The notes under the pieces: model-generated
Database searches by the model: none
The model's input: the letters and a program-made list of their open reading frames with translations, nothing else
What the model was told of the DNA's origin: nothing
IMG/VR virus record: IMGVR_UViG_3300044712_000982
Coordinates: 21,373-85,372 of that record
From: a virus
Direction: 5' to 3' (one strand)
DNA length: 64,000 nt
Position numbers and translations under genes: made by a program
In this document: in pieces, positions 2,890 to 28,530 of the stretch
Layout: every line of letters begins with the position of its first letter
Position numbering within the stretch: position 1 is the stretch's first letter

Positions 2890-4046
2890 GTGAGAGACGC
2901 CGAACTGTGCGCCGGCTTCGGGGGCTTGCACCTCGGCCTCCAACTCGCCGGACTCCCCGTCCATCTCGCGTGGTACGCCGAAAACGACCCCGCACCATCC
3001 GTCGTCATGGCCACCCACCACCCCGACACCCCCAACATCGGCGACATCACCACCGCCAACTGGGACGCAGCCGAACCGGTCGACATCCTCTGCGCCGGAT
3101 TTCCATGCCAGCCGTTCTCCCTCGCAGGGAAACGGCGCGGATCAGCCGACGAACGTCACCTCTGGCTCACCGGCGTGCTCCCCGCGATCACGACGCTTGA
3201 GCCCGAGGTCTTCTTCGGCGAGAACGTCCCCGGGCTGCTCACCATCGAACGCGGCGAGGTTTTCCGCGCGATCCTCACCGACCTCACCGCGCGCAACTAC
3301 ACCATCCGCTGGACCACCATCGGCGCCTGCAAAGTCGGCCTGTGCCACCACCGGCACCGCGTCTTCATCCTCGCAACCCGCCAGATCGGCGAACTCCCAC
3401 CCGAGTTGGGCATGCCGATCTCGGCCTGGTCCAGGGGCCGCAGCCGCAACCCGTGGCCGCGCGACGGAGTATGCGCGGGCGGCGAAGTGTGGGACGAACC
3501 TACCGACCACTGCCACAAGACCGGCCTACTGCCCACCCCGACCGCGACACCGTACGGCAACAACCAGACCGACAGCCCGGGTGCCGCCGTGCGCCCATCA
3601 CTCGACGCCCTCGCGCCACTCCTACCGACGCCACGCGCATCCGACGGCGAAAAGGGCGGCCCGAACCAGCGCGGATCATCCGGCGACCTCGCCCTACCCG
3701 CCGCCGTGCAGCCCGAACGGTGGGGCCAGTACGCCGAGGCCGTGTGGCGACACGAACTCATCACCGGCATGCGCGCACCCGACCCGACCATCACCGGCAA
3801 ACGCGGCGGACGTCGCCTCAATCCGGAGCTCACAGAGTGGATGCAAGGGCTACCGGCCGGGTGGATCACCGGCTCGATCCTGCCCGACAAGGACCCGCGT
3901 CCGGACCGCATCGACCGGAACGCCGCTAACAAGATCGCTGGAAACGGCGTGGCTGTTCCCGCCGTGGCTGCCGCCGTGCGCCGGCTACTCGACCGTGCTG
4001 GCTGGGCCGCGCTGCCATCCCAACCCGCACCGGAGGTGCAGCATGA
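2890..4046 (+). CDS. DNA (cytosine-5) methyltransferase; no in-frame stop at the expected end
   Basis: LCAGFGG (motif I), GFPCQPFS (IV), ENV (VI), HRHRVFIL (VIII), GNGVAVP (X); end set at the out-of-frame TGA 4044-4046, while the frame itself stays open to 5595. Confidence 0.9.
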
Positions 4047-4546
4047 GCAAGTTTCTATACGCGTTCGGCGCGTCGGTCGCCTACCTCGGCACGATCGTTG
4101 CCGCGAACTGGGCCATCGCAACGTTCGGCGCGGTCCCGGTCGGGTTCGGGCTCGTAGCACCCGCTGCGGTCTGGTTCGCAGGTCTCGCGTTCACGCTCCG
4201 GGACCTACTTCACGACGCAGCCGGACGCTGGGCGGTGCTCGCCGCAACTGCTGTCGGTGCGGTCTTGTCGGCCGCCGTCGCGGGTCCGGCCATGGCGCTG
4301 GCATCGGGCGTCGCGTTCGGCGTATCGGAGCTGGCGGACTTTGCCGTCTATGCCCCGTTGCGCCGTCGCCGCTGGCTCCTCGCCGTGGCCGCATCCAACG
4401 CATTCGGACTCGTGGCCGATTCGCTGCTGTTCCTCTGGCTGGCGTTTGGGTCGCTCGCGTTCCTGCCGGGCCAGATCGTCGGCAAAACCTGGATGACGAT
4501 CCTCGCCGTCGCAGTCCTCGCAGTGTGGCGGAGGTGCCGCAGGTGA
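4043..4546 (+). CDS. VUT/YhhQ-family (queuosine precursor type) membrane transporter
   Basis: Multi-TM protein with AANW, LAFTLRDL, FGVSELADFAVY, SNAFGLVADSLLFL, GQIVGK; GGAGG RBS. Confidence 0.8.
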   Translation: MSKFLYAFGASVAYLGTIVAANWAIATFGAVPVGFGLVAPAAVWFAGLAFTLRDLLHDAAGRWAVLAATAVGAVLSAAVAGPAMALASGVAFGVSELADFAVYAPLRRRRWLLAVAASNAFGLVADSLLFLWLAFGSLAFLPGQIVGKTWMTILAVAVLAVWRRCRR

Positions 4547-5392
4547 GGCTCTACCTCGGCGTGGACGTCGGCTGGCTCAACCGGCCCGAGATGGCTGGTA
4601 CGCCGCGCTGCGTCTCCCGCAACCGACTCGCCGGGCGTCGCAGCATCCAGCGCGCCAACGGGCCGATCCTCATCGACTCCGGTGCTTTCACCGAACTCAA
4701 AACCCACGGCCGGTGGCGCATCACCCCCGCAGAATACGTCGCCGAGGTGCGCCGCTACGTCGCAGCGATCGGGCCAGACAACGTCGTGGCCGTCGGGCCG
4801 ATGGACTGGATGTGCGAGTCCGTGGTCATCGACGGAGGCGTCACGAAAGACGGGCGCTTCGCCGGTACTCGTGCGGCCATCGGCATGCCAGACGCGAGCC
4901 TCGACGAGTGCATCGCTGAGCATCAGCGCCGCACCGTCGCCAACTACCTCGAACTCCGGGCGCTCGCGCCTGACCTGCCGATCATGCCCGTCTTGCAGGG
5001 CTCGACCCTCGACCAGTACCTCCGCTGCGTCGACATGTACCGGACGGCTGGTGTTGAACTGCGCACGGTGCCGCTCGTCGGGCTCGGCTCCGTCTGTCGA
5101 CGGCAGGCGTCGGACGAGATCGACCTGATCGTCACCACCCTCGAATCGCTCGGGATGTCCCTGCACGGGTTCGGCGTCAAGTCCGGCGGACTCGCCGCGT
5201 ATGGGCCGCTCCTCACCTCCGCCGACTCGATGGCCTGGTCCTACGGCGCCCGGAAACGCGGCGGCCGGTGCGTCCACGGGCTTGTCAGGTGGGAGACCAA
5301 CTGTCCCGCGTGGGCTGCCGCGTGGTGGCGCCGAACCACGGCACGTATCAACTGCGCGCAACCCGCGCTCGACCTTTGGAGTGCCGTCATGA
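4543..5392 (+). CDS. tRNA-guanine transglycosylase-fold (DpdA-like) protein
   Basis: ILIDSGAFTEL, PMDWMCE, IMPVLQG, GLGSVCRR, LHGFGVK, SADSMAWS; frame continues into 5389-5595. Confidence 0.7.
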
Positions 5393-5595
5393 CCGTCACC
5401 GCCACGTGGACGCGCCCCACGTGCGACACCTGCCGCGCGGTCTACACCCCGACCGGCCCGTACTGGGACGGCACCAACGACCGCATCGACGCCATGGCCC
5501 GCGCCGCCGGTTGGGGCATTGCCGTTGGTGTCACCCACGGTGGGCGCCCGTATGCGGCAGCGGCGTGCCCGACCTGCCGCCGTGGTGGTGCATGA
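5389..5595 (+). CDS. small Cys-rich protein, in frame with the TGT-like gene
   Basis: CDTC..CPTC; own GGAG RBS and ATG. Confidence 0.45.
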   Translation: MTVTATWTRPTCDTCRAVYTPTGPYWDGTNDRIDAMARAAGWGIAVGVTHGGRPYAAAACPTCRRGGA

Positions 5596-15148: not shown

Positions 15149-16639
15149 GTGACTGCGGTCCTGTCGCCGTGGGAGGCTGCGGCGCGACTGTTCGAGCCGA
15201 GGCGTCCGGTGGAGCCGTGCTCGTGGCCGTCGCCCGGTGCAATGGCGTGTGATCTTGACGCTCGGACGGTGCAGACTGCTGCGCTGAATCTGATTGATGA
15301 TGCGCTTGTCGATGTCGCTAACGGCGAGTGTTTGCGGCTGATGATTTCGATGAGTCCTCAAGAGGGCAAGTCTGAGAGGACGTCTCGGCGTTTTCCCTTG
15401 TGGGCGTTGCGCCGTAATCCGAATTTGCGGATCGCGATTGTTTCGTATGCTCATGGTGTCGCGCGGCGTTGGGGTCAGTTCATCCGCGACGACATCGTTA
15501 ACCACGGCGACAAGCTTGGTTTGGCTGTTGATCCGTCGTCGTCTGCGGCGCATGAGTGGAAGCTCGACGGGTACGACGGCGGGGTCTATTGTGTCGGAAT
15601 CAAAGGTTCGCTGACATCACGTGCCGTCGATCTGCTCATTATTGATGACCCATATAAGGATGGGGAACAGGCCGATTCGGCGGCCTGGCAGGAAACCGTC
15701 CGTGACTTCTGGACCGAAGTCGCAATTCCCCGGCTCGGGCCCGGTGTCGCCGTGGTCATCATTCAAACAAGATGGCGGCACGATGACCTGTCCGGCTGGC
15801 TGAAAGACCGCAACGACGGGGTTGCCTGGCGCGTCATCAACATCCCAGCCCAAGCCGACCATCGGCCCGAACTCGGCGAGGCCGACCCACTCGGCCGAGA
15901 GCCCGGCGAATACATGGCTTCCGCCCGCGGCCGGACCCCCGAACAATGGGAACAACGTCGCCGGGAGGTCGGCGAACGCTCTTGGAACGCGCTTTTTCAG
16001 GGGCGGCCAACGCCGGGCGAGGGAGGGCTGTTCCAGCGGTCCTGGTGGCGCCATTTCGACGCGATGCCGGCCTACCGGGCACCTGCGGGGACATGGCACG
16101 CCGACGCCGATCAGGTCATCCAATCATGGGACATGACATTCAAGGACACCAAAGGTTCCGACTACGTTGTCGGGCAGGTGTGGGCTCGCCGTGGCGCACA
16201 GGCGTGGCTCCTCGACCAGGTGCGCGACCGCATGGACTTCACCGCCACATGCAAAGCCGTCGAAGCGCTGTCGGCGAAATGGCCGCAGACGACGGCAAAA
16301 CTGGTCGAGGACAAGGCCAACGGCCCGGCCGTGATATCCCAGTTGCGCATGCATGTTCCGGGACTGATCGCCGTCGAGCCCGGAGGGTCGAAGTACGCCC
16401 GCGCGTCGGCTGTGGCGCCGCTGGTCGAGGCGGGAAACGTTTACATTCCGACGGCCGCGGTCGCGCCGTGGGTCGGATCTTTCGTTGAGGAGCTAGCCGG
16501 GTTCCCGGCGGCAAAGCATGACGATCAGGTCGATGCCGCGTCGCAGGCGCTGTCGAGGCTGATGCTCGGCGTTTCGGGTGTCGCATCGAGCGAGTGGCTG
16601 AATGCATACAAGAATGCATACAAGGATGCTGCTGGATGA
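15149..16639 (+). CDS. terL: terminase large subunit
   Basis: SPQEGKS, LLIIDDPYK, IQTRWRHDDL, SWDMTFK, EDKANG, HDDQVDA. Confidence 0.95.
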   Translation: MTAVLSPWEAAARLFEPRRPVEPCSWPSPGAMACDLDARTVQTAALNLIDDALVDVANGECLRLMISMSPQEGKSERTSRRFPLWALRRNPNLRIAIVSYAHGVARRWGQFIRDDIVNHGDKLGLAVDPSSSAAHEWKLDGYDGGVYCVGIKGSLTSRAVDLLIIDDPYKDGEQADSAAWQETVRDFWTEVAIPRLGPGVAVVIIQTRWRHDDLSGWLKDRNDGVAWRVINIPAQADHRPELGEADPLGREPGEYMASARGRTPEQWEQRRREVGERSWNALFQGRPTPGEGGLFQRSWWRHFDAMPAYRAPAGTWHADADQVIQSWDMTFKDTKGSDYVVGQVWARRGAQAWLLDQVRDRMDFTATCKAVEALSAKWPQTTAKLVEDKANGPAVISQLRMHVPGLIAVEPGGSKYARASAVAPLVEAGNVYIPTAAVAPWVGSFVEELAGFPAAKHDDQVDAASQALSRLMLGVSGVASSEWLNAYKNAYKDAAG

Positions 16640-16649
16640 CGGGGGGTGA

Positions 16650-19271
16650 ATGGTGGGGCGTCGCCGTACCCGTAGTCAGCGCACGGTCGTGAAGGCCGCC
16701 GCACCCACGATCACCCCGGCCGGCACGTTCACACCACAGCAGGTGCTCGGGTTGATGCAGGCCGCCCGAAGCGGGCAGGTCACGGGCGCGTTGGTGCCGC
16801 TGCCGCGGGTTGAGCCGCAGGTGGCGTTCGGGCCGGGCGTACCGCTCATCCCGGGCGCAATCGACCCGGTGCAGCCGTCCGGCCGCCCACTTCCGCGCCG
16901 CAACGAATATCCGGTCACGGCGAACCTGCCGGGCGTCACGGATCGGCTGGTGCCGTGGTCCGTGCTGCGCGACGCGGCAGAGCGCATCCCGCTGTTCCGC
17001 AAGTGCATCGAGATCCGCAAGAAGGAAGTGGCGACGGTCGAATGGACTGTCGCCGTCACCAAGGACGCCGTCAATGCGGCGCGTGAAGTCGACGGCGGGT
17101 CGAAAGTCGAGGTTGAGAAGGCGCTGCGGGAAAGGCTGGCGCCGGAAATCTCGCGGTGTACCGAGTTTTGGAGCGAGCCCGACCGGGACCAGGGGTACGC
17201 GTTCTCACGGTGGGTGACCGCCGTCCTCGAAGACCATTTGGTGTTGGATGCGATCGCGCTGTTTCCGCGTCGGACTCGGGGCGCGGTTGCCGGGCTCGGC
17301 AAAGACCTGTACGCGCTAGAATGCATCGACGGCAGTACGGTGAAGCCGTTGCGTGACCATCGTGGTGGTCGGCCGTTGCCCCCGAATCCGGCGTTTCAGC
17401 AGATTCTGCACGGATTCCCGCGCGGCGAATTCGTCGCCGATGTTGACGGCGACGGGAACGTCATCAACGGGTACACTGCGGACCGGCTGATTTATCTGCG
17501 GTCCAACGTCCGATCGTTCACCCCGTACGGGCTGTCGGCCGTCGAGCAGGCGCTGATGGACGGCGACCTGTACCTGAAGCGCATGCAGTGGATGGGCTCT
17601 GAGTACACCGATGGCGTCATGCCCACCGGATGGCTCAAGCAGGACGGGTCAATGCTCGGCTGGACGCCGCAGCAGGTCATGGACTTCGAGCGGCAAATCA
17701 ACGACGTCTACGGCGGCCAGTCCGCGATGCGGCACAGGCTCCGTGTCCTGCCGCCGGGGATTGAGCCGGTCGAATCGACGGACGTGGCCGAACGGTACCG
17801 GCCCGAATACGACCTGCACCTGATCAAGTTGGTTGCGGGACATTTCGACGTCACCATTGCCGAATTGGGCTTCACGGAGCAGGGTGGCCTCGGGTCCACC
17901 GGGTGGCATGAGGGCCAGGCCGACATACAAAACCGGCGCGCCACCCGCCCCGACATGCAATGGCTACAGGAAACCCTGACCGACATTTCGCGTCGACACA
18001 TCGGCATGCCCCGAGAGTTGGAACTCAAATTCTTGGGCTTCGATTCCGAGGATGAGGCCGAAGCGGACACGGTCACCCAGAACAGGGTGTGCACCGCGCG
18101 GATGACCATCAATGAGGCGCGCGACCAGACCGGGCAGCCGCGCCTCGACATCCCCGAAGCCGACATGCCGCTACTCATCTCCGGGAACAACGTCACCGTC
18201 CTCGAAGGTGCCGCCGATCGGGCTGCGGCCGGCGCGGAACTCGCACAGCGGGCCATCGTGGGTAAGCAGCCCGCGGAAGACGATGACGGAGAGTCGCCGG
18301 CCCCACTGGGCGCCACATCCGACACCGAGGATGCCGACAGCCCGCCGAAGCCAGCCGCCGCCGAAGACGCCGAAGCGGAGAAGTCCGTCAAAGCGGAGAT
18401 CGGCGCGTACCGGCGTTGGCTCCGCAAAGGCCACACCTCGCGCCCATTCGTCGCCGCCCACCTCACGAAGGCCGACATCGCCACCTACGGACTCGACCCG
18501 GCCACCATCACCCCCGCCGCAGGGCGTGATGCCGACCCAAAAGCGTGGCCCGGGTGGTCCCGGGACCGGCAAACCGCCAACCACTGGGCGCCCATCCTCG
18601 CGCAGGCTTTGACTGGGGCACTGCCCGATAGCCTCACGGCCGACTACCGGCAGACCCACCCCGACGCGTCCGAGACCGAACCCGCCGAACAGTGGCTCGA
18701 CGACCGCCGCGGCAAAGTCACTGCCACACTCGCCGCGGTACTCATTCCGCTGATGCTCGACGGCGCAGTCATCGGCGCACTGTCCACACGCGCCCTCGCC
18801 GCCAGCGGCACCGCAGCCGGGGCGATCGCCTCAGTCGACTGGCTTGGCTGGCGCCCGGGTGACACCGACCGGGCACGGCAGATCCTCGCCGCCACCGGCG
18901 TCGACACGGCGATAGTCGAGGCCGAGTCGCGACGTGCCGCGCAACAACTCACCGCGGGCAGGCTCACGGCAGCAGCTGCTGCGATCGCGGCCGGCACGAG
19001 CATCACGGCAGCGCTCAACGCGTCGCCATGGGCCGCCATGGTCGCACTGACCGAGGTTGGTCGCGCTGCTGAAATCGCGGCGGCAGTGATCCAGCCGGCA
19101 ACCGGGATGCGCCACCAGCGGTGGTATCTCGACCCGCGGGTGGACAACTGCCCCATCTGCATCGAAAACGCCGAATCCGGCCCGCTGCCCGTTGGCGTGG
19201 CGTGGCCATCCGGGCACATCCGCCCGCCCGTCCACCCCTGGTGCCGCTGCCATCTCGGAGGAGCCTCGTGA
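16650..19271 (+). CDS. portal protein fused to a MuF-like minor head domain
   Basis: Portal motifs IDGSTVKP, YGLSAVE, FDVTIAELG, TINEAR; C-terminal CPICIEN..PPVHPWCRC. Confidence 0.85.
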   Translation: MVGRRRTRSQRTVVKAAAPTITPAGTFTPQQVLGLMQAARSGQVTGALVPLPRVEPQVAFGPGVPLIPGAIDPVQPSGRPLPRRNEYPVTANLPGVTDRLVPWSVLRDAAERIPLFRKCIEIRKKEVATVEWTVAVTKDAVNAAREVDGGSKVEVEKALRERLAPEISRCTEFWSEPDRDQGYAFSRWVTAVLEDHLVLDAIALFPRRTRGAVAGLGKDLYALECIDGSTVKPLRDHRGGRPLPPNPAFQQILHGFPRGEFVADVDGDGNVINGYTADRLIYLRSNVRSFTPYGLSAVEQALMDGDLYLKRMQWMGSEYTDGVMPTGWLKQDGSMLGWTPQQVMDFERQINDVYGGQSAMRHRLRVLPPGIEPVESTDVAERYRPEYDLHLIKLVAGHFDVTIAELGFTEQGGLGSTGWHEGQADIQNRRATRPDMQWLQETLTDISRRHIGMPRELELKFLGFDSEDEAEADTVTQNRVCTARMTINEARDQTGQPRLDIPEADMPLLISGNNVTVLEGAADRAAAGAELAQRAIVGKQPAEDDDGESPAPLGATSDTEDADSPPKPAAAEDAEAEKSVKAEIGAYRRWLRKGHTSRPFVAAHLTKADIATYGLDPATITPAAGRDADPKAWPGWSRDRQTANHWAPILAQALTGALPDSLTADYRQTHPDASETEPAEQWLDDRRGKVTATLAAVLIPLMLDGAVIGALSTRALAASGTAAGAIASVDWLGWRPGDTDRARQILAATGVDTAIVEAESRRAAQQLTAGRLTAAAAAIAAGTSITAALNASPWAAMVALTEVGRAAEIAAAVIQPATGMRHQRWYLDPRVDNCPICIENAESGPLPVGVAWPSGHIRPPVHPWCRCHLGGAS

Positions 19272-19552
19272 TCGTTCATCCCACGCCGTTTGCGGCCTCG
19301 GGTGTCATCGCCACCACCGCCAAGCGGTACGCCGGATTTTCGGTCCGGGAGACCGCCGGATCAACCGCGACCGTGCGGGTATGGGACTCCGCAACAGGCG
19401 CTACCGGCGCCGTGATGGAGGAGATCGCGCTCGTCGCGTACGAGTCAGCTCGCGAGTACTACCCGGCCGGCATCACCACATCGGGCCAGACCGGCATCTA
19501 CGTCGAGGTCGTGTCCGGCACGGTCACCGGATCGATCCGCAGGGAGGCATAG
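19268..19552 (+). CDS. small beta-rich hypothetical protein, possibly virion-associated
   Basis: Coupled ORF in the head module. Confidence 0.55.
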   Translation: MIVHPTPFAASGVIATTAKRYAGFSVRETAGSTATVRVWDSATGATGAVMEEIALVAYESAREYYPAGITTSGQTGIYVEVVSGTVTGSIRREA

Positions 19553-20001
19553 TGGCGCGGCAGATCACCGACGCGCAGAAGGCCGCCGCAGTCCAGCGCG
19601 TCAAGTCCGGCGAATCCAAGGCTGCTGTTGCCCGATCCCTTGGCGTGTCCGGCCCGACCGTCACCAACTGGATCAACGCCGCCGCCGCCGAGCAAGCAGA
19701 AGCCGCACCGAAATCTGAGGCGTCACGTTTCGCACCCCCAGCACCGGCAGAGGTCGTACCCCCGCCAGCGCCCGCGCCCAAACCGGTCGTCCCGGGTGAC
19801 GTCGCACCGCCCGCCACGCTCGCACCCATCCCCGGGCCGCAGCAGGCACCCACCCCGACCGTGGTCGCCGCACCCCCAGCACCCGTCCCGACCATCGCCA
19901 CGCGCGACGAAGTCTGCGGCATGTGCCGGCCACCGCAAGGTGTGCACCCGTGCGCGACGTCATTCACCTGTGCGCACGGCCATTGGGTATTGCACCTCTG
20001 A
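19552..20001 (+). CDS. HTH protein with Pro-rich linker and C-terminal Cys motif
   Basis: ESKAAVARSLGVSGPTVTNW; CGMC..C.HGH. Confidence 0.55.
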   Translation: MARQITDAQKAAAVQRVKSGESKAAVARSLGVSGPTVTNWINAAAAEQAEAAPKSEASRFAPPAPAEVVPPPAPAPKPVVPGDVAPPATLAPIPGPQQAPTPTVVAAPPAPVPTIATRDEVCGMCRPPQGVHPCATSFTCAHGHWVLHL

Positions 20002-20088: not shown

Positions 20089-21036
20089 ATGCGCGTTGGA
20101 GTCACCGGCGGAGCCGGATTCATCGGCGGTCACGTCGTGGCCGAGTTGCGGGGCGCCGGCCACGACCCGATGGTGTTCGATACGCGTGGCCGCATCGCCC
20201 ACGGCGCACCGGTCATGATGGGCGACGTCCGCGACGCAACAGCCGTCACCGAGTTCGCAGCCCACGTCGATGCGATCATCCACCTTGCGGCGGTGCTGGG
20301 CACGCAGGAGACGATCACCAATCCGCGCCCGTCGGCCGAAACAAACATCATCGGCGCGTTGAACATCTTCGAAGCCGCAGCCCAGTACTCGCTGCCGACC
20401 GTCTATGCGGGCGTCGGGAACCATTGGATGCGCAACCACGGAACCGGCGCCTACACCATCTCGAAGACGGCCGCCGAGGACTTTGCGCGCATGCACAACG
20501 CCTACCGCGGCGGGCGCATTACCATCGTCAGGCCCGTCAATGCCTACGGCTGCGGGCAGTCGGTAGCCGCACCGTACGGCTCGTCGAAGGTCCGCAAGAT
20601 AACCCCCGCGTTCGTGTGTCGAGCATTGACCGGTGCGCCCATCGAGGTCTACGGCGACGGCACCCAAATCAGCGACATGGTCCACGTATCCGACGTCGCC
20701 CACGCCTTCGTCGCCGCCATCGACCACACCGCGCAGCATGGCGCCACCGTCAAGCCCGTCGAAGTCGGGCCGCCCACCAGCCACACCGTCAACCAGGTCG
20801 CTGAGCTGGTCATCAAGGCCGCCGCCGACCTCGGATACCCGCCCGTCGAACTGACACACCTGCCGATGCGGCCCGGAGAAGTCCCCAACGCCGTTGTGTC
20901 CGCCGACGTCTCGACCCTCGCGCAGGTAGGCATCGACCCGGGCGCATTCGTGCCGCTCGACGCGGGTATCTCCGGAACTGTCGCATGGTTCGCCGAGCAC
21001 TGGCTCCCCGGCTACCTCGCCAGCCGGTCGTCATGA
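20089..21036 (+). CDS. NAD-dependent nucleotide-sugar epimerase/dehydratase
   Basis: VTGGAGFIGGH, IIHLAA, YTISK (YxxxK), RPVNAYG, VYGDGTQISDMVHVSDVA. Confidence 0.92.
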   Translation: MRVGVTGGAGFIGGHVVAELRGAGHDPMVFDTRGRIAHGAPVMMGDVRDATAVTEFAAHVDAIIHLAAVLGTQETITNPRPSAETNIIGALNIFEAAAQYSLPTVYAGVGNHWMRNHGTGAYTISKTAAEDFARMHNAYRGGRITIVRPVNAYGCGQSVAAPYGSSKVRKITPAFVCRALTGAPIEVYGDGTQISDMVHVSDVAHAFVAAIDHTAQHGATVKPVEVGPPTSHTVNQVAELVIKAAADLGYPPVELTHLPMRPGEVPNAVVSADVSTLAQVGIDPGAFVPLDAGISGTVAWFAEHWLPGYLASRSS

Positions 21037-21236
21037 TGCCGCAGCTCGGCGAGGCCTACCGCTATCAGCCGCAGGGCATGACTGGCCATCCGGCATACGG
21101 GGTGCACGTGACCGTCGTCGGACTGATCCTCGACACGGCGACCGGAGCCAAGAAGATCCGCGTACACGGCCCGGACGGTGTCTACGAACCCACCGCCGAC
21201 ATCTTCGCCCGCGACTACTGGGGCCCACTCGCGTGA
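21033..21236 (+). CDS. small hypothetical protein
   Basis: ATGA/GTGA-coupled within the sugar cluster. Confidence 0.5.
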   Translation: MMPQLGEAYRYQPQGMTGHPAYGVHVTVVGLILDTATGAKKIRVHGPDGVYEPTADIFARDYWGPLA

Positions 21237-22237
21237 CCCGCATCCACTTCTGGTGCGCCGACGAAGCCGGGCAGGCGTTCTGGCGCATGCAACTGCCAGG
21301 CGAAGCACTACGGCGCCGCGGCCACCACGTCACCATCGGGCAGGCGTTCACCGTCGAACGACAGGGCGAGGCCGACGTGGTTGTGGGGCCGCGGATCTGC
21401 GAGCCGGCACCAACCGCCGTGTGGCAGCGACTAGCGGCTGAGGGACGCGCGCTCGTCTACGACGTCGACGACGATTACCTCAACGTCGATTCGACCAACG
21501 CGGACGCCGTCGTCTACTACGGCGACCCAGGACGCCGCGCTCGGATGATCGCCAACATCGAGGCAGCCACCGCCGTCACCTGCGTATCGCAACGCCTCGC
21601 CGACACCTACCGTCGCCACAATCCGAACACGGTGGTCGTGCCGAACGGGCTCCCCGCTCACGTGCTCGACTGGCGGCATTCCAGCCTCGGCCCGGTCACG
21701 CTCGGATGGGCCGGATCGAGCTCGACGCTCCCGGAGCTGGAGTTGATCGGCTCCCGGGTACGGCGATTCTGCGACCGCAACGCTGGCGTGCGGGTCCGCA
21801 CCGTCGGTGTCTGGCCCCGGGACCTCGCATCAGTTGGACTGCGCAGCGACGCCGTCGAATACGTCGGCTGGCGGACGCCCGGCGAAGAATACCTGCGGGC
21901 GTGCCAAGGGTTCGATGTGTGGCTGGCCCCGTACCGATCCACCGAATTCAACAGGTGCAAGGCTGCGACGAAAGCGATCGAGGCTGCCGCACTCGGTATC
22001 CCCATCATCGCATCGGCGATCGAACCCTACGAGCGGTTCGTGGAGCACGGCGTGACCGGTTTCCTGGTCCGCCGAGACCACGAATGGGACGGGTACATGC
22101 GGCAACTCGCCACTGACATCGACCTGCGTACGGCGATGGGGAAGGCCGCCCGCGACAAGGCTCGCAGCAACACGATCGAATCAATCGCGCCACAGTGGGA
22201 GGCGGCAATGGGCATCACCGCAGGGGTTGCGGCGTGA
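21233..22237 (+). CDS. GT-B fold (GT4-like) glycosyltransferase
   Basis: VYDVDDDY, VVVPNG, LGWAGS, KAIEAAALGIPIIAS..HGVTGFLV. Confidence 0.85.
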   Translation: MTRIHFWCADEAGQAFWRMQLPGEALRRRGHHVTIGQAFTVERQGEADVVVGPRICEPAPTAVWQRLAAEGRALVYDVDDDYLNVDSTNADAVVYYGDPGRRARMIANIEAATAVTCVSQRLADTYRRHNPNTVVVPNGLPAHVLDWRHSSLGPVTLGWAGSSSTLPELELIGSRVRRFCDRNAGVRVRTVGVWPRDLASVGLRSDAVEYVGWRTPGEEYLRACQGFDVWLAPYRSTEFNRCKAATKAIEAAALGIPIIASAIEPYERFVEHGVTGFLVRRDHEWDGYMRQLATDIDLRTAMGKAARDKARSNTIESIAPQWEAAMGITAGVAA

Positions 22238-23109
22238 GCGTCAACGGGCGCCCGACGATCGCGTGGACCCCTTGGGGGCGGAAGGTCACGACGTCGCTGC
22301 TGTATCGGCACCTGGCGCGTGACCACCGACGCGGCATTGTCGACGCCTGGTACCTGTACATGAATACCGACCCGGATCAGGTCGGTGATGTTGCCTACGC
22401 GCACGAACTGGCCGCGTCGCACGACTGGATTCACCTAGTCCACCGCCCGGCCGATGTTCCCGTCCTGTCGCCAAAGCAGCGCATGACCGGATTTGCCTAC
22501 CGCTATTTCACGAATGCCGACGCGGTGTATGTGCGGCTCGACGATGACATCATCTACATCCACGAAGATGCCATCACAACACTCGTGAATGCGAAACTTC
22601 AACAAGAATCGGTGCTGTGCGCATTCCCGATGACATGGAACAACGCCATTGTCTCGCACTTCGCGCAGCAGTACGGCAAGATACCCCGCGACTGGGGCAC
22701 CGTCGGCATGTACTGCATGGACCCGATCGGGTGGGCTAACGGCCAATTCGGAATCAGGATCCACAACCTCCTGCTGGAGAAGATCGAGCAGGGCCGTGTA
22801 GGTGACCTGTACCTGTACCAGGACGTTCCACTCCCGCCCGCCACCCAATTTTCCGTATCATGCTTCGCTACGGCCGGCAGCGACTACGCGATACTCCAGC
22901 CGCCCGGATTCCTCGGCTACAGCAACGACGCATACGGATGGGCCGAGGAAGAGAACTTCCACACCATCGAATGGCCGCGTCGCACCGGCAAAGTCAACAT
23001 GCTCATCGGCAACGCGTTGGTCTCCCACTACACGTTCGGGCCGCAACGCCAGGAGATCCTCGCAACCGACATTCTCGACCGCTACCGGGCGATCGCCGAG
23101 GCGCAATGA
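22234..23109 (+). CDS. putative GT-A fold glycosyltransferase
   Basis: WTPWGR start, YVRLDDDIIYIH (DxD), located between two GTs. Confidence 0.6.
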   Translation: MSVNGRPTIAWTPWGRKVTTSLLYRHLARDHRRGIVDAWYLYMNTDPDQVGDVAYAHELAASHDWIHLVHRPADVPVLSPKQRMTGFAYRYFTNADAVYVRLDDDIIYIHEDAITTLVNAKLQQESVLCAFPMTWNNAIVSHFAQQYGKIPRDWGTVGMYCMDPIGWANGQFGIRIHNLLLEKIEQGRVGDLYLYQDVPLPPATQFSVSCFATAGSDYAILQPPGFLGYSNDAYGWAEEENFHTIEWPRRTGKVNMLIGNALVSHYTFGPQRQEILATDILDRYRAIAEAQ

Positions 23110-23870
23110 GCAGCAGCGGCCGAACCGAACCGGCCCCCCTCAAAGTCGGCGTATGCGTGCCAGTACTCAACTCTCTGCCGTGGATCGAAAACCTGATCAC
23201 GTCGATCGAGGCGCAAACCTACCAGCCATTCTGCCTGTATTTTGTGGTCGACCGGAACGCGGACGGTACCGACGATGGCACCTGGGATTTCATGTCCTGC
23301 CGGTGGGGCAACTACAGCCTGACTCGCAACGATGTCCATCTTGGCTGGCCGGCGTCACTGAATCGGGCAGCCTTTTTCGCCGTCGACCACGGTTGCGATG
23401 CGTTGTTCGTTGCGAATGCGGACGATTGGCTTCGCCTCGACTGCCTCGAAAAGGCGGTTGCCGCACTACCGGGATACGACTGGGTGAATGTGTACGGCCA
23501 GCAGGTCGGCGGCCGGGACGTGGTCATGGAGTCGATTCCGCCGACGTCACTGGCGGAGCTGACGACACACACGCCGTGCACCAACTTCGCCCTCATCACG
23601 GCCAAAGCGTGGCAGGAGGTTGGCGGGTATGCCGAAGACCTCGGTCTTGCTGGGCTTGGCGCGGGCTATGAGGACTGGGAATTTTGGGTTCGCATGGTCA
23701 AAGCCCGGCTGCGCGGCAATGTGGTGAAAGAGCCGCTCTACTACTACCGCATGCACGAAGGCCAGCTGCACAGGCTGACCACGGCGCGGCACGCCGAAGC
23801 CGTGGATCTCATCATGCGGCGGCACCCCGACTTGGCGCGGATAGCACGCAAGCGGCGCAACGGCGACTGA
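23106..23870 (+). CDS. GT2-family glycosyltransferase
   Basis: VCVPVLN..SIEAQTY, SLNRA, NADDWL, YEDWEFWVR, EPLYYYR. Confidence 0.9.
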   Translation: MSSSGRTEPAPLKVGVCVPVLNSLPWIENLITSIEAQTYQPFCLYFVVDRNADGTDDGTWDFMSCRWGNYSLTRNDVHLGWPASLNRAAFFAVDHGCDALFVANADDWLRLDCLEKAVAALPGYDWVNVYGQQVGGRDVVMESIPPTSLAELTTHTPCTNFALITAKAWQEVGGYAEDLGLAGLGAGYEDWEFWVRMVKARLRGNVVKEPLYYYRMHEGQLHRLTTARHAEAVDLIMRRHPDLARIARKRRNGD

Positions 23871-23880
23871 GGGGGTGACC

Positions 23881-24786
23881 ATGGCCGGCGAACACTCGGA
23901 AGACTGCGCAAACGCGACCGGCAAGATTTGCGTCTGCTCATGCCGAGGATCGATGCACGGCATGGCCCATACCGATGGACACAACGCTCACGTGTCCAGG
24001 CTCGCCGAAGTCACCATGCCAGACGACGGCAGCACGCCAGTGGAACGGGAAAAGCATCCAGTCATCGTCGCGCAGGTCGACAACGACGCCGACCACTTCA
24101 TCCGCCATGAAGAGGACCAGTCCGAACGACTCAATCTCAATGCGCTCAGCGACGACGAACTTATGGCCGAGTTCAACGCGGCGGCCGAACGGGGAGACGA
24201 CGCGGCGGCACAGCGCATCTTCGATGAAATGGGTTGGCGTGAACAGAACATGGACACGCCAACCGGCGACGCGGGCGGCGGCGAGGACGGATGGCTTTCC
24301 GGCGGCAGCGACCTCGGCCATTGGAATGATCAGTCCGCGCCCGAGGACAGTCGCGTTGACGATCTGGTGGCTCGCGGTTGGGACTATCTGGAAGCCTACG
24401 CGGAAGTCCACGACCTAAATCCGGAACAGTTGCGCCGCGACGAGGCATCGTCTGCGGTTGAGCGCGGAGTTGGCGAAACGCTGGAACGATCGGTCCGGCG
24501 ACAGTACGACGAGTAGGTCAACCTGCAATACATTGCAGCCGAGACCGCCGTTCGGGGCCACATGCTCTCGCGTGAAGGTAAACGCGCCAACGTCGATCCG
24601 ATAACGCTGTTCTCTGGCCCAACGGCTCGTGCCAGGAAGCACGCATCCGAAGACCTGCTCCGATGGTGGGCGGATAACGGAAGGATGACGTACGCCGAGT
24701 TTCGCGCCCAGATTCTTGGTCGGGAGTCCGACGTGGAGTCGGCCAAGAAAACGCGCATGCAGTCGAACGCGAAGGACTTCATCTGA
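23881..24786 (+). pseudogene. head-module gene interrupted by a single in-frame TAG (24514-24516)
   Basis: RRQYDE*VNLQYIAAETAVRGHMLS continues in frame into ORF 24562-24786. Confidence 0.65.
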
Positions 24787-26699
24787 TGGCCAAATCGAAG
24801 CAGCCGTCAGCTGACGCGACTGACATCATGCACGCGCGTCGTCTCGGCGTTTTCGCGGGGCGTCGTGGCTTGGCGGTCACGAGTTGTCCATTTCGGGCGG
24901 ACGGCGATGCGCGACAGAGGGCGTTGTCGCTGGCGTGGGTACGCGGATTCCTGTCGGTGCGTGGTGGCGAAAGTGTCTCGTATGAATCAGATGAGGCGGC
25001 CAACATCGGGGCCGTCGAAAAAAGCGACGGAGCGGTTATGACTGATGTTGCCTACGCTTGGGCGCCTATCACTAAGACCGTCAAGCAGGACGACGGAACG
25101 CTGATGGTGTACGGGCCTGCCATTTCGACTGACCTTGACAGCGATGGCCAGCGATTCAGCCAGGAATTTATCGATAAGGCTATGCCTGCGTGGCTAAGGG
25201 ACGGGGCTAACGTCAGAGAACAGCACGACCCGAAACGGGCCGTTGGAGTAGGTGTTGGCCTTACTCGCGGCGACGACGGGGCGCAGCTTCTTGCGGCGAA
25301 GGTCGTCGACTCCGAGGCAATCAAGAAGGTCGACCACAAGGTTCTTCGTGGATTCAGTGTCGGGGTCCGTGAGCCGCGCATTGTCATGGGGAAGGCTGAC
25401 GCGCCCGGCGGGGAGATCGTGGGGGGCCGGGTAATCGAAGTGAGCCTCGTCGATAGACCAGCCAACGGTCGATGCCTATTCGAAATGGCCAAGGCCGACG
25501 GTTCCGGCGCACTTCAGCCCATCGATGACCCGAAGGTGGTCGAGCACGACGACACCCCGGACGCAACCAAGTCCGATGTGCCGGACGTCGAGAAGCGTGA
25601 CTTTCCCGCGAAAGAGCGCGAAGAGGCCGCCGAATCCGGCGAGGCAATGAAGGACGGCGCCTACCCGGTCAAGTCGAAGTCCGATCTCCGCAACGCCATT
25701 AAGGCGGTCGGTCGAGGCGGCGCCGACCACGACGCGATCCGCCGGCACATCATCGCCCGCGCGAAGGCGCTCGGACTCACCGACATGATCCCCGACAACT
25801 GGGGGCCGGACGGCGCACTCAAGGGCTCCGAGAAGACGGAATCCGCGGACGGCATCCTCAAGGCTCTCGCCGATCTCGACCTCGCCAAGGTCGACGGGGA
25901 AGGTCCGCGTGACGAGTCGCAGGATCTCGCCGGGGCACGTGACGCGCTCGGGTGTCTCGCCGCGCTGATCCAGCACGAGGCGCAGTCGCTGGGCATGGGC
26001 CAGTTCGACGAGGCCATCGACATCCAGATCCTGCTGCGCGCGGTCGATGCGCTGCGCTGGTTCGTCGAGCGAGAGCAGGCCGAAGCCGCAGGCACCGCGG
26101 CGGCAGCCGTTGCCATGCCAGCCGTGGTGGAGATGTCGGACGCACCGGACCTCACCAAGTCCGACGAGCCCGAGACGACGACCCCACCGGAGGAGCAGTC
26201 GCCCGCCGTGACCGACGAATCGGCCGACGTAGCTACTCCAGAGACCCCCGCCGACCCGGCCCCACAGTCGGAACCGGCGGTCACGAAGACCGACGTACCG
26301 ACCCTGACCAAGGCCGACGTCGCCGACCTGATCAAAACCGCAGTTGCGGAGGCCACGACTGCCGCCGAACAGCGCGAAAAGGACCTCATCGTGAAGGTCG
26401 ACGCGCAGGCCGCAGCCCTGGCAAAGGCAACCGAGCGGATCGACGCCCAGTCGGCGGACCTCACCAAGGCGCTCAGCGAGTTGGAGGCGGTCAAGGCGCT
26501 GCCCGAGCCTGGCGGGCCGGTGCTCACGCGCACCGCCGTGCAGGACCAGGCGGCACGCTATTCGGATGCCGATCTGCTGAAGGCCGAGGCGGCGAAACTT
26601 TTGCAGAAGGCCGACGGAATGGCCGACCTCACCCTCCGCGAGGGTTACCGCGAGCTGGCAGAGAAGAAGCTCGCGCAGGCCGCCCAGATCGCCATCTGA
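24786..26699 (+). CDS. prohead protease / scaffold polyprotein with N-terminal CP-x-W small domain
   Basis: NVREQHD, GFSVG, EVSLVDRPAN protease motifs; KRDF...IPDNW domain; acidic/Pro-rich then helical scaffold tail; alternative ATG at 25038. Confidence 0.8.
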   Translation: MAKSKQPSADATDIMHARRLGVFAGRRGLAVTSCPFRADGDARQRALSLAWVRGFLSVRGGESVSYESDEAANIGAVEKSDGAVMTDVAYAWAPITKTVKQDDGTLMVYGPAISTDLDSDGQRFSQEFIDKAMPAWLRDGANVREQHDPKRAVGVGVGLTRGDDGAQLLAAKVVDSEAIKKVDHKVLRGFSVGVREPRIVMGKADAPGGEIVGGRVIEVSLVDRPANGRCLFEMAKADGSGALQPIDDPKVVEHDDTPDATKSDVPDVEKRDFPAKEREEAAESGEAMKDGAYPVKSKSDLRNAIKAVGRGGADHDAIRRHIIARAKALGLTDMIPDNWGPDGALKGSEKTESADGILKALADLDLAKVDGEGPRDESQDLAGARDALGCLAALIQHEAQSLGMGQFDEAIDIQILLRAVDALRWFVEREQAEAAGTAAAAVAMPAVVEMSDAPDLTKSDEPETTTPPEEQSPAVTDESADVATPETPADPAPQSEPAVTKTDVPTLTKADVADLIKTAVAEATTAAEQREKDLIVKVDAQAAALAKATERIDAQSADLTKALSELEAVKALPEPGGPVLTRTAVQDQAARYSDADLLKAEAAKLLQKADGMADLTLREGYRELAEKKLAQAAQIAI

Positions 26700-26745: not shown

Positions 26746-28530
26746 ATGTCTGGAGACAACATCATGGCTCTGCCTCCCGTCGAAAACCTGTTCGGCGGCG
26801 CACCGGATGCGCCGCGGCTGTCCCCCGCCGAGGTCGCGACCCGCTTCGACGAATTCCTCAGCAAGGTCGATTCCGCGCCGCAGCGGACGATCACCCGCGA
26901 GGAGGCGGCGGCGCTCGGATCCGGATCGTCGGTCAGCTTCGACGCGCCCGAGACGCCGTACGCGTCCCTGACGAAGGCGCTCGCTGCGCCCTCGATCGTC
27001 AAGTCGATGTCGGCCGAGTCGCTGGCCAGTGTCACGGCGACGCTGGAGCAGCTCAAGGCGCAGGTCCCGGATCTGGCGAAGGACATCAGTCTCACGTCGC
27101 CGGTGTCGACGGGTCTGGTCGCGTTCGACCTTGAGGCCCCGGCGAAGATGCTTACGCCCCGGCCGACGCCGCTGCGGAACCGGGTGATCCGGCGCAAGGG
27201 TGTCGGCACGTCGCACCGATTCAAGAAGATCACCGGGTTCACGGGTACCGGCACTGGTGGTGTCGGCGTGCTCCGTCCGGGCATCGCATCGACGACCCAG
27301 ACCAACTTCGCCGTATCCGGCTCCTCGAACGCCCTGTACTACAACCGTGGGCCGAAGATCTCCTACGCCGGTGAAGACGTCGTCGTCCCCTACATCCAGT
27401 TCGGCGTATCCGACGAGGTGACGTGGGCCGCGCAGTACTCCGGCCAGGGCTACCAGGACATTCGGCAGCTCTCCCGCACGTCGCTGCTCTACAGCTCGAT
27501 GCTGATGGAGGAGCGCGTTCTGCTCTACGGCCGCGGCACCGCCTCCGGGTTCGCGGGCGTCCTCGCCGCGCCGACCGGTGTTGCTGTCACCGCGCGGACC
27601 GCAGCGAGCAACGAGACCGCCCTCACCTCGGGCACCTACATCTATGTGCGGGTGTGCGCGGAGATGGGCGACTTCGGACTGTCGCAGGCGTCGGCGGTCG
27701 CCTACAACGCGAGCCCGACCACCACGGGCCAGGTCGTTGACGTCACGTACACCCTGCCGGCCGGTGCGACCGGCGCGCGGGTGTTCGTCACCTCCAACAC
27801 CTCCGCCTCCGACCCGGGCGATGCGTCGAAGTACCTGTACGCCACACGGTCCGGGTACAACACCACGGCGATCCACGGGACCCTGCCTACCTCCGCGAGC
27901 CCGGCCGTCACCGCATGGACCGACGCCCGCGGCGTGGCCATCAACCTCACCAGCGCCGACGGAGGCAGCGCCGACGCCAACGAGTACGACGGACTGTGGG
28001 CCTACTGCTCCGGCACCTCGGCCGGCTACACCAACACGCTCAACACGACCCTGTCGACCACATCACCCGGGTCCGAGTGGCAGACCGGCTTCGCATCGAT
28101 GTACGACAGCGTGAAGGCCGACCCGGACCGGATCATGATGTCCGGGCAGGACCGCAAGCAGCTCTCCGAGGCGATGCGGTCGGGCGGCTCCAACTCGGCG
28201 TACCGGCTGACCGTCCGGCAGGACGAACTGACCGGCGTCAGTCTCGGTGACGTCGTGACGACCATCTACAACGAGGTCACCGGCAAGGCCGTGGACATCG
28301 AGGTGCATCCGTGGCTGCCGCAGGGCAACAGCCTGATCGTGTCGGACACGCTGCCGATGCCCGACTCGCAGGTTTCTGAGGTCTTCGCCGTGTGGAACGT
28401 GCAGGACCTCATGGGCGTGGACTGGCCGGTGAACCAGTTCGCGTACGAGTCGTCGTCCTACTGGTACGGTACCGCGATCTGTTACGCCCCCGGATGGCTC
28501 GGCTCCATTTCCGGCATCAAGAAGTCCTGA
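26746..28530 (+). CDS. major capsid protein with large internal insertion
   Basis: Follows scaffold; PTPLRNR, LMEERVLLYG, IEVHPWLPQG; followed by a terminator. Confidence 0.8.
   Translation: MSGDNIMALPPVENLFGGAPDAPRLSPAEVATRFDEFLSKVDSAPQRTITREEAAALGSGSSVSFDAPETPYASLTKALAAPSIVKSMSAESLASVTATLEQLKAQVPDLAKDISLTSPVSTGLVAFDLEAPAKMLTPRPTPLRNRVIRRKGVGTSHRFKKITGFTGTGTGGVGVLRPGIASTTQTNFAVSGSSNALYYNRGPKISYAGEDVVVPYIQFGVSDEVTWAAQYSGQGYQDIRQLSRTSLLYSSMLMEERVLLYGRGTASGFAGVLAAPTGVAVTARTAASNETALTSGTYIYVRVCAEMGDFGLSQASAVAYNASPTTTGQVVDVTYTLPAGATGARVFVTSNTSASDPGDASKYLYATRSGYNTTAIHGTLPTSASPAVTAWTDARGVAINLTSADGGSADANEYDGLWAYCSGTSAGYTNTLNTTLSTTSPGSEWQTGFASMYDSVKADPDRIMMSGQDRKQLSEAMRSGGSNSAYRLTVRQDELTGVSLGDVVTTIYNEVTGKAVDIEVHPWLPQGNSLIVSDTLPMPDSQVSEVFAVWNVQDLMGVDWPVNQFAYESSSYWYGTAICYAPGWLGSISGIKKS

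Follow-up and report, generated by a model that had tools for sequence, protein, structure and literature searches.

A candidate virion glycosylation cassette in the head module of a phage genome from IMG/VR

Introduction

To our knowledge, virion glycoproteins have been reported for only a few mycobacteriophages, whose virion glycan reportedly shields the particles from antibodies. In the mycobacteriophage Corndog, which has no integrase, the interval bounded by the portal gene and the protease gene encodes an O-methyltransferase, two glycosyltransferases, and a putative N-acetylglucosaminyltransferase, and these have been proposed to modify the capsid (PMC4351075). According to PMC12363180, which cites Freeman et al. 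2023, Che8, Corndog, and Myrna contain glycosylated proteins; the same paper calls Che8 gp110 and Corndog gp38 essential for capsid glycosylation. Here we describe a cassette of sugar enzymes that is likewise placed among head genes, in the virus record IMGVR_UViG_3300044712_000982. The record is 106,285 bp long, carries direct terminal repeats, and is rated 100% complete (IMG/VR). The window, by which we mean the whole 64-kb stretch that was analyzed, corresponds to bases 21373-85372 of the record and has a GC content of ca. 65%; the cassette occupies positions 20089-23870 of the window.

On balance, and with moderate confidence, we favor the reading that this cassette glycosylates the phage's own virion proteins late in infection. 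We do so because the cassette runs in line with the head genes and is coupled to them, because one of its enzymes is homologous to Corndog gp36, because the enzymes are soluble, because the genome lacks an integrase, and because related cassettes are recurrently associated with head and tail genes. The same function had been proposed in a preliminary description of the window, made from the sequence alone, which named conversion of the host surface as the alternative and thought glycosylation of DNA less likely.

Results and Discussion

A coupled five-gene cassette in line with the head genes

The cassette comprises the five genes listed below, with family assignments taken from Pfam, PHROGs, and NCBIfam (SDR, short-chain dehydrogenase/reductase; ORF, open reading frame; GC3, GC content at third codon positions).

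20089-21036, plus strand: SDR enzyme, 315 amino acids (P0001); PF01370 at E 2.2e-36, phrog_540 at E 1e-51
21033-21236, plus strand: 67-amino acid ORF; ATGA overlap with the SDR gene and GTGA overlap with the GT-B gene; GC3 0.84
21233-22237, plus strand: GT4-type GT-B glycosyltransferase, 334 amino acids (P0003); Glyco_trans_1_4 at E 4e-10, phrog_7162 at E 8e-53
22234-23109, plus strand: protein X, 291 amino acids (P0004); GTGA overlap with the GT-B gene; modeled with a GT-A fold
23106-23870, plus strand: GT2 (GT-A) glycosyltransferase, 254 amino acids (P0005); ATGA overlap with the gene for X; PF00535

Direct reading of the sequence revealed a 4-nt stop/start overlap at each of the four junctions within the cassette, which leaves the genes no space for separate expression signals. 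The GC3 of its genes (0.77-0.84) is coding-like and within the range of their neighbors. For X and the GT2 enzyme, the coupled starts at 22234 and 23106 agree with the N-termini of homologues; the starts of the longest ORFs (22195 and 22860, respectively) were rejected because they lie too far upstream of those N-termini. The family matches, the model of X, and the overlaps bear out the set of overlapping epimerase-type, GT-B, putative GT-A, and GT2 genes that had been described, although what was taken for a four-gene cluster holds a fifth gene besides the four enzymes. This gene, the 67-amino acid ORF, fills the gap between the SDR and GT-B genes exactly. It has no family match, and clustering grouped it with none of the proteins called in the first 82 related loci; it may be a phage-specific small subunit or adaptor. 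The stated order, with the cluster between a portal-MuF fusion and the protease, is also correct, but the cluster does not adjoin either: a 94-amino acid ORF and a helix-turn-helix (HTH) gene intervene upstream, and a 211-amino acid protein and a 74-amino acid ORF intervene downstream.

A consensus scan for promoters and terminators returned zero sites in or adjoining the cassette, and promoter- and terminator-like sites across 13-32 kb were fewer, not more numerous, than in shuffled sequence. The hairpin in the 87-nt gap that separates the HTH gene from the SDR gene was no better than in shuffled sequence (z -0.54). A promoter or terminator splitting the cassette from the head genes was therefore rejected, given the empty consensus scan and a gap hairpin at the shuffled level. 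A scan of one prophage cassette was uninformative. We infer that the cassette is co-transcribed with the head genes and expressed late.

The complete genome encodes no tyrosine or serine recombinase (integrase), and a profile search of its six-frame ORFs found no paralogue of the four cassette enzymes elsewhere. None of the five cassette proteins has a membrane-like segment (the highest 19-residue hydropathy is 1.51), so the acceptor should be cytoplasmic.

Protein X is related to Corndog gp36

Although X matches no Pfam or NCBIfam family, an AlphaFold2 (AF2) model made from an alignment with 25 homologues had a pLDDT of 93.4, and the Foldseek matches of this model at probability 1.0 were exclusively GT-A glycosyltransferases (TM ca. 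0.5). The motifs R-x-DDD, EEE, CMD, and QFSVS are invariant and mark X as a putatively active DxD enzyme. From the model, we confidently predict that X is a GT-A-fold glycosyltransferase.

Profile comparisons connect X to the Corndog cassette. The alignment of X against Corndog gp36 alone gave an hhalign probability of 69.5%, which rose to 95.4% (E 1.7e-8, 250 columns, ca. 18% identity) against a family alignment of four members, namely Corndog gp36, Thibault gp15, Marvin gp80, and Phabba 244. An N-terminal xGR, DDD, NN(A/G), and H-x-x-F-x-P-Q are common to X and this family. A hidden Markov model (HMM) of 93 X-family members matched the same four proteins at 2.8e-13 to 6.4e-9 and, among ca. 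1,950 proteins, nothing beyond them below E 1. In the reverse search of the 1,122 six-frame ORFs of the genome, the gp36 HMM matched the X ORF alone (E 1.5e-6). By these comparisons, X is a remote, specific homologue of the Corndog gp36 family. HMM and hhalign comparisons found no homologue of Corndog gp37 or of Che8 gp108, and a kinship of Che8 gp108 with X or gp36 was likewise rejected by profile comparison. In the ESM Atlas, the clusters nearest to the X family are mostly of viral origin.

Collagen glycosyltransferases are the top matches to the fold of X. A collagen-like fiber was considered as the target and rejected, as the genome contains no run of six Gly-X-Y triplets in any frame. Such runs, of at least 6 triplets, occur near the cassette in 7 of 80 related loci.

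The SDR, GT-B, and GT2 enzymes

The SDR enzyme scores 125.9 bits against PF01370 (cutoff 20.9) and has both the Rossmann GxxGxxG motif (TGGAGFIG) and YxxxK (Y122-x3-K126). Its AF2 model (pLDDT 91.4) shows a two-domain fold with TM 0.80-0.82 to UDP-hexose 4-epimerases, and dehydratases and decarboxylases score nearly as high. In HMMER alignments the catalytic Ser/Thr of the Ser/Thr-Tyr-Lys triad is missing. Its position is taken by Val109, which aligns with Ser121 of PelX (mutated in the S121A/Y146F entry 6wj9) and, in the T. maritima enzyme, with the equivalent Thr, and Val109-Gly110-Asn111 is invariant or nearly so in 21 members of the cassette SDR family. No NCBIfam equivalog scored above its cutoff. 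Judged by sequence, the protein is certainly an extended SDR of the sugar-nucleotide type, which keeps the earlier idea of a phage-made sugar plausible; with Val109 in place of the catalytic residue, its reaction is not assignable, and it may be something other than an ordinary 4-epimerase. The loop preceding the catalytic Tyr is ca. 12 residues shorter in the cassette family than in extended SDRs.

The C-terminal domain of the GT-B enzyme matches Glyco_trans_1_4 (40.5 bits, cutoff 27) and Glycos_transf_1 (34.4 bits, cutoff 26.4), with Glyco_trans_1_2 likewise above its cutoff. The protein shares 31% identity with the products of gene 6 of KimJongPhill and gene 5 of Zuko, which are annotated as glycosyltransferases in these Streptomyces phages. 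The GT2 enzyme matches PF00535 (39.9 bits, cutoff 23.3) and carries an acidic DxD-type motif, N-A-D-D-W; it has no match among cultured phages, and its hhalign comparison with the Corndog gp37 family was not significant. Going by these matches and by its distribution (see below), it is a standard soluble GT-A enzyme and an accessory member of the cassette.

SDR, GT-B, and X form a widespread trio

The close homologues of X number at least 379, none of them named, and 192 IMG/VR contigs encode a relative. To count the co-occurrence of the cassette genes, 82 related loci were fetched. The SDR gene stands beside X in 75 of them, at up to 70% identity, and the GT-B gene in 66; the GT2 gene does so in only 23 and is then usually found between the GT-B gene and X, not after X. 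The cassette genes of these loci share one strand, usually in the order SDR, GT-B, (GT2), X. Judging from these counts, SDR, GT-B, and X are a conserved mobile trio, which many Streptomyces prophages also carry and which is always sited next to virion genes.

Close members of the X family in genome collections come almost entirely from Streptomyces, with others in Acrocarpospora and Actinocrinis; distant copies that stand alone are found in planctomycetes and alphaproteobacteria. In a set of 50,697 cultured phage records, X had matches only in two Synechococcus phages, at 24% identity. The full trio was present in none of the cultured phages searched, nor did the region have a nucleotide match among them. 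Neither X nor the portal protein gave a match in single-sequence pattern scans.

Several features of the related loci deserve mention in their own right. On contigs of planctomycete metagenome-assembled genomes (L110-L121), BLAST found X homologues of ca. 30% identity with no SDR or GT-B gene within 10 kb, and in L112 the lone X gene lies amid unrelated chromosomal genes, e.g., for a sulfatase and a BNR-repeat protein, which points to a cellular branch of the family. These planctomycete homologues offered no hint of function. In 24 loci, X is followed on the same strand by a coiled-coil protein of 60-75 amino acids. In others (L050:10855-11538, L063:10843-11553, and L068:950-1603) a protein of ca. 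230 amino acids comes directly after X, with motifs that by eye look like the sugar-binding DXD region of GT32-type transferases; such a protein would be one more exchangeable transferase. Genes resembling HNH-type endonucleases and Cys-rich zinc-finger proteins, recognized from motifs only, lie between or beside the cassette genes of several relatives (L025:2465-3076, L029:6202-6774, L037:7177-7737, L036:3101-3565, and L063:11585-11983). This suggests homing elements, which may help the cassette to move.

Position of the cassette in relatives and its likely acceptor

In three phages or prophages with related capsids (62-66% identity), there are no sugar genes at the junction between portal and scaffold. 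The scaffold/protease gene either follows the portal-MuF gene directly or is separated from it by a different small insert. Because the three capsid relatives lack sugar genes there, the cassette is, on this sequence comparison, an insertion in the head module, one probably acquired horizontally. The relative with the 66%-identical capsid carries at this junction an insert of another kind, encoding a 327-amino acid XepA-like protein and a 278-amino acid protein (L127:6534-8355), and the junction appears to tolerate insertions.

The variable junction also bears on what the enzymes act upon. Had the head-operon site been chosen merely for its tolerance of insertions, the cassette could act on something else in the cytoplasm, for instance a host protein, a small molecule (e.g., in antibiotic inactivation), or a glycolipid. 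The variation among the relatives, with its different insert in L127, fits such an explanation, and GT-B and GT-A enzymes glycosylate acceptors of many kinds. We nevertheless regard it as quite improbable, for the trio is found near virion genes in many independent phage lineages, and X is related specifically to a glycosyltransferase gene of the mycobacteriophage cassettes.

Across the related loci, the common theme is a cassette near morphogenesis genes, in a variable position. Most Streptomyces prophage-type loci (e.g., L003:8073-10861) run from the tape measure, minor tail, and last tail genes through an inverted cassette to holin and endolysin; L005-L067 and L090-L103 provide the inverted examples. 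Both flanks are co-oriented with the cassette in 14 of 80 loci. Co-oriented cases from unrelated phages include L108 (GC 0.44) and L052, where the cassette follows the capsid gene. In L036 the cassette precedes the terminase and portal genes, and in L002 it sits between tail-fiber and holin genes.

Several points weigh against virion glycosylation. Of 80 related loci, 61 have a downstream flank that is oriented toward the cassette and, where annotated, consists of tail genes, an orientation that suggests a separate transcription unit, possibly not a late one. Related capsid genes are present in Streptomyces and Kitasatospora chromosomes, which leaves room for a temperate or plasmid-like lifestyle. 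The HMM of gp38/gp110, the proteins called essential in Corndog and Che8, had no match at E 1 among the six-frame ORFs of the genome, and hhalign probabilities did not exceed 1.1%; the initiating step would therefore need another route. Finally, a search of sequencing runs listed no RNA run for the phage or for a Streptomyces prophage copy. The original proposal of virion glycosylation thus draws strength from the homology of X to gp36, the Corndog-like position, and the absence of an integrase, and loses some of it through the missing gp38/gp110 homologue and the many relatives that face tail genes.

The main rival to virion glycosylation is conversion of the host surface. The enzymes would modify precursors of host envelope glycopolymers, teichoic acid-like or other wall polysaccharides, at the cytoplasmic face of the membrane, and the resulting change of receptor would lead to superinfection exclusion or leave fewer progeny sticking to debris. 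The same 61 of 80 loci speak for it, in particular where annotation places the cassette after the last tail gene and ahead of the lysis genes, since this interval is a classic site of lysogenic-conversion genes. Close homologues are also frequent in Streptomyces chromosomes, and soluble transferases such as TarP, TarS, and TarM, of which TarP is prophage-encoded in Staphylococcus aureus, can modify lipid-linked precursors. For the cassette family, then, the alternative named at the outset is alive, most relatives being a separate unit that faces tail genes. For the phage studied here we nonetheless judge host-surface conversion unlikely. Its cassette is in line with and coupled to the head genes, no integrase was found, and there is neither a flippase nor a polyprenyl-phosphate transferase nor a membrane segment. 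X shares homology with a glycosyltransferase gene from the Corndog cassette, and virion glycoproteins are reported for that phage; in unrelated phages, too, the cassette adjoins capsid or terminase genes. Moreover, remodeling that began late in the lytic cycle would have little time to act.

A combined function is less probable still. Under it, the trio would be an unrecognized, widespread module of actinomycete phages that makes a virion glycan with a different initiator and, when expressed from a prophage, also remodels the wall, so that one cassette would serve both virion coating and receptor masking. Culturable strains with the trio in a prophage include Streptomyces triculaminicus JCM 4242, S. 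capoamus JCM 4253, S. naphthomycinicus TML10, and Acrocarpospora phusangensis NBRC 108782. The presence of the trio in prophages of several named Streptomyces strains makes the virion-coat and host-surface readings directly testable.

Flanking genes, the probable host, and the rest of the genome

Beginning with the large terminase gene (15149-16639) and continuing to the tail genes, the called genes form a dense series on the plus strand, with a single exception: a 74-amino acid ORF on the minus strand, regarded as a shadow of the HTH gene. The genes around the cassette are as follows.

16650-19271, plus strand: portal-MuF fusion, 873 amino acids; phrog_2662 portal at E 3e-71, weak Pfam Phage_portal match; the upstream head landmark
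19268-19552, plus strand: 94-amino acid ORF; GTGA overlap with the portal stop; GC3 0.82; no family match
19552-20001, plus strand: 149-amino acid HTH protein; HTH_23 at E 7e-7; 1-nt overlap with the 94-amino acid ORF
23881-24516, plus strand: 211-amino acid acidic protein; start 5-11 nt past the GT2 stop; weak phrog_1752 match
24562-24786, plus strand: 74-amino acid ORF; 45-nt gap after the 211-amino acid gene
24786-26699, plus strand: putative prohead protease/scaffold fusion, 637 amino acids; 1-nt overlap with the 74-amino acid ORF; the downstream landmark
26746-28530, plus strand: major capsid protein, 594 amino acids; phrog_13692 at E 3e-86, weak SU10_MCP match; 46-nt gap after the 637-amino acid gene

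Homologues of the portal-MuF protein in two of the capsid relatives (L127 and L128) carry both Phage_portal and Phage_Mu_F. The HTH protein has a Pro-rich linker and a Cys/His-rich C-terminus. The gene tables of L127-L129, the three capsid relatives, list no counterpart of it or of the 94-amino acid ORF. The cassette may have brought both genes along, or it may be regulated by the HTH protein. Downstream, the 211-amino acid protein has an N-terminal Cys/His cluster (C-x9-C-x-C-x-C...H-x3-H), and its single weak match is to a non-catalytic part of the protease family phrog_1752. The 637-amino acid protein matches phrog_21715 (E 8e-26), the head maturation protease family phrog_80 (E 1e-8), and phrog_617, with none in Pfam, and is tentatively assigned as a prohead protease/scaffold fusion. 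The capsid protein shares 23% identity with a protein of Alicyclobacillus phage MMB025 that is annotated as the major head protein, and is a candidate acceptor of the glycan.

In a search of sequencing runs, reads of the region were found only in two rhizosphere DNA metagenomes. Because the homologues of the capsid protein (>2,800) are often in Streptomyces and Kitasatospora genomes, the host is most likely a Streptomyces-like actinomycete.

The remainder of the genome is informative about another possible substrate. As in T4 and other phages whose DNA is hypermodified, the transferases could glycosylate the bases of the phage's DNA as a defense against restriction, a role that would fit a putative DNA-modification locus at 2890-5595, with a C5-methyltransferase and a tRNA-guanine transglycosylase (TGT) fold. 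Phage glycosyltransferases that work on DNA together with sugar-nucleotide enzymes are known (PMC13326640). The known routes, however, need 5-hydroxymethyl or 5-hydroxy pyrimidines, supplied by thymidylate-synthase homologues or by TET/JBP dioxygenases (see PMC13326640), and in the complete 106-kb genome neither PF00303 nor PF12851 has a match at E 1. The cassette, moreover, is in the head module, ca. 15 kb from the putative DNA-modification locus. We therefore consider DNA glycosylation very improbable, in line with the low rank given to it originally; the argument made then now takes in the whole genome, which lacks TET/JBP and thymidylate-synthase homologues.

A model for virion glycosylation

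Returning to virion glycosylation, we envisage that the SDR enzyme would convert a nucleoside diphosphate (NDP)-sugar of the host into a modified donor, by 4-epimerization or a related oxidation/reduction. The soluble GT4, X, and GT2 enzymes would then link a short glycan to capsid and/or tail subunits and lengthen it while the subunits are synthesized and assembled, a process that would take place in the host cytoplasm during late gene expression. The glycan could shield or stabilize the particle surface, or alter adhesion. That the acceptor is a protein, the order in which the enzymes act, and the biological benefit are all presumed in this scheme.

If correct, the model suggests that virion glycosylation reaches into a large set of phages from Streptomyces and related actinomycetes, with an enzyme set that is mostly different from that of the mycobacteriophages and is built around one common glycosyltransferase family that has no name. 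As a probe, the X/gp36 family could serve in the search for candidate glycosylating phages, and the link between X and gp36 is a first functional lead for hundreds of "hypothetical proteins". Set against the databases and papers searched, three elements appear to be new: the definition of the SDR/GT4/X trio as a widespread mobile unit of actinomycete phages, the recognition of X as a GT-A enzyme homologous to Corndog gp36, and the insertion of the cassette in the head module. The layout of the cassette is already known from Corndog.

Comparison with known systems

Gene products gp35-gp38 of Corndog (cluster O) provide the closest parallel. In both phages, glycosyltransferase genes occupy the interval from portal to head protease and run in line with structural genes, and no integrase is present. 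X and gp36 are homologous over their whole length and are the sole enzyme common to the two cassettes. Unlike Corndog, the cassette described here has no gp37 or gp38 homologue and no O-methyltransferase, and its SDR enzyme and GT4 GT-B enzyme are absent from the portal-protease interval of Corndog.

Other mycobacteriophage cassettes (clusters J, S, I, and C2; the Thibault, Marvin, Brujita, and Phabba/Myrna type) likewise vary in position near virion genes, that of Thibault following the capsid gene and that of Marvin lying near minor tail genes. Che8 also encodes three soluble glycosyltransferases (gp108-gp110) and, according to the paper noted above, has glycosylated proteins. Its enzymes have no detectable homology to those of the present cassette, however, and their genes lie outside the head module, at the right genome end.

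Among Streptomyces phages, KimJongPhill (Zukovirus) has a related arrangement in genes 4-6, where an SDR (hhalign 98.3%) and a GT-B enzyme (hhalign 100%, 31% identity) are co-oriented just upstream of the terminase and portal genes. In both KimJongPhill and Zuko, the GT-B gene lies directly upstream of the terminase gene; in KimJongPhill it comes after the SDR gene and a methyltransferase gene. KimJongPhill has a methyltransferase instead of X and GT2, and no X homologue. Its gene 4 (L084:1199-2251) is annotated as a UDP-glucose dehydrogenase, yet it matches the epimerase-type family of the cassette SDR; judging from this match, the deposited name may be wrong.

Host-surface modification by TarP of S. 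aureus and by O-antigen conversion of the Gtr type is also phage-borne, and the location of most cassette relatives near tail and lysis genes is common for conversion genes. Unlike Gtr-type conversion, the cassette of this phage includes no flippase, polyprenyl-phosphate transferase, or membrane segment, the genome has no integrase, and the genes are coupled to those of the head.

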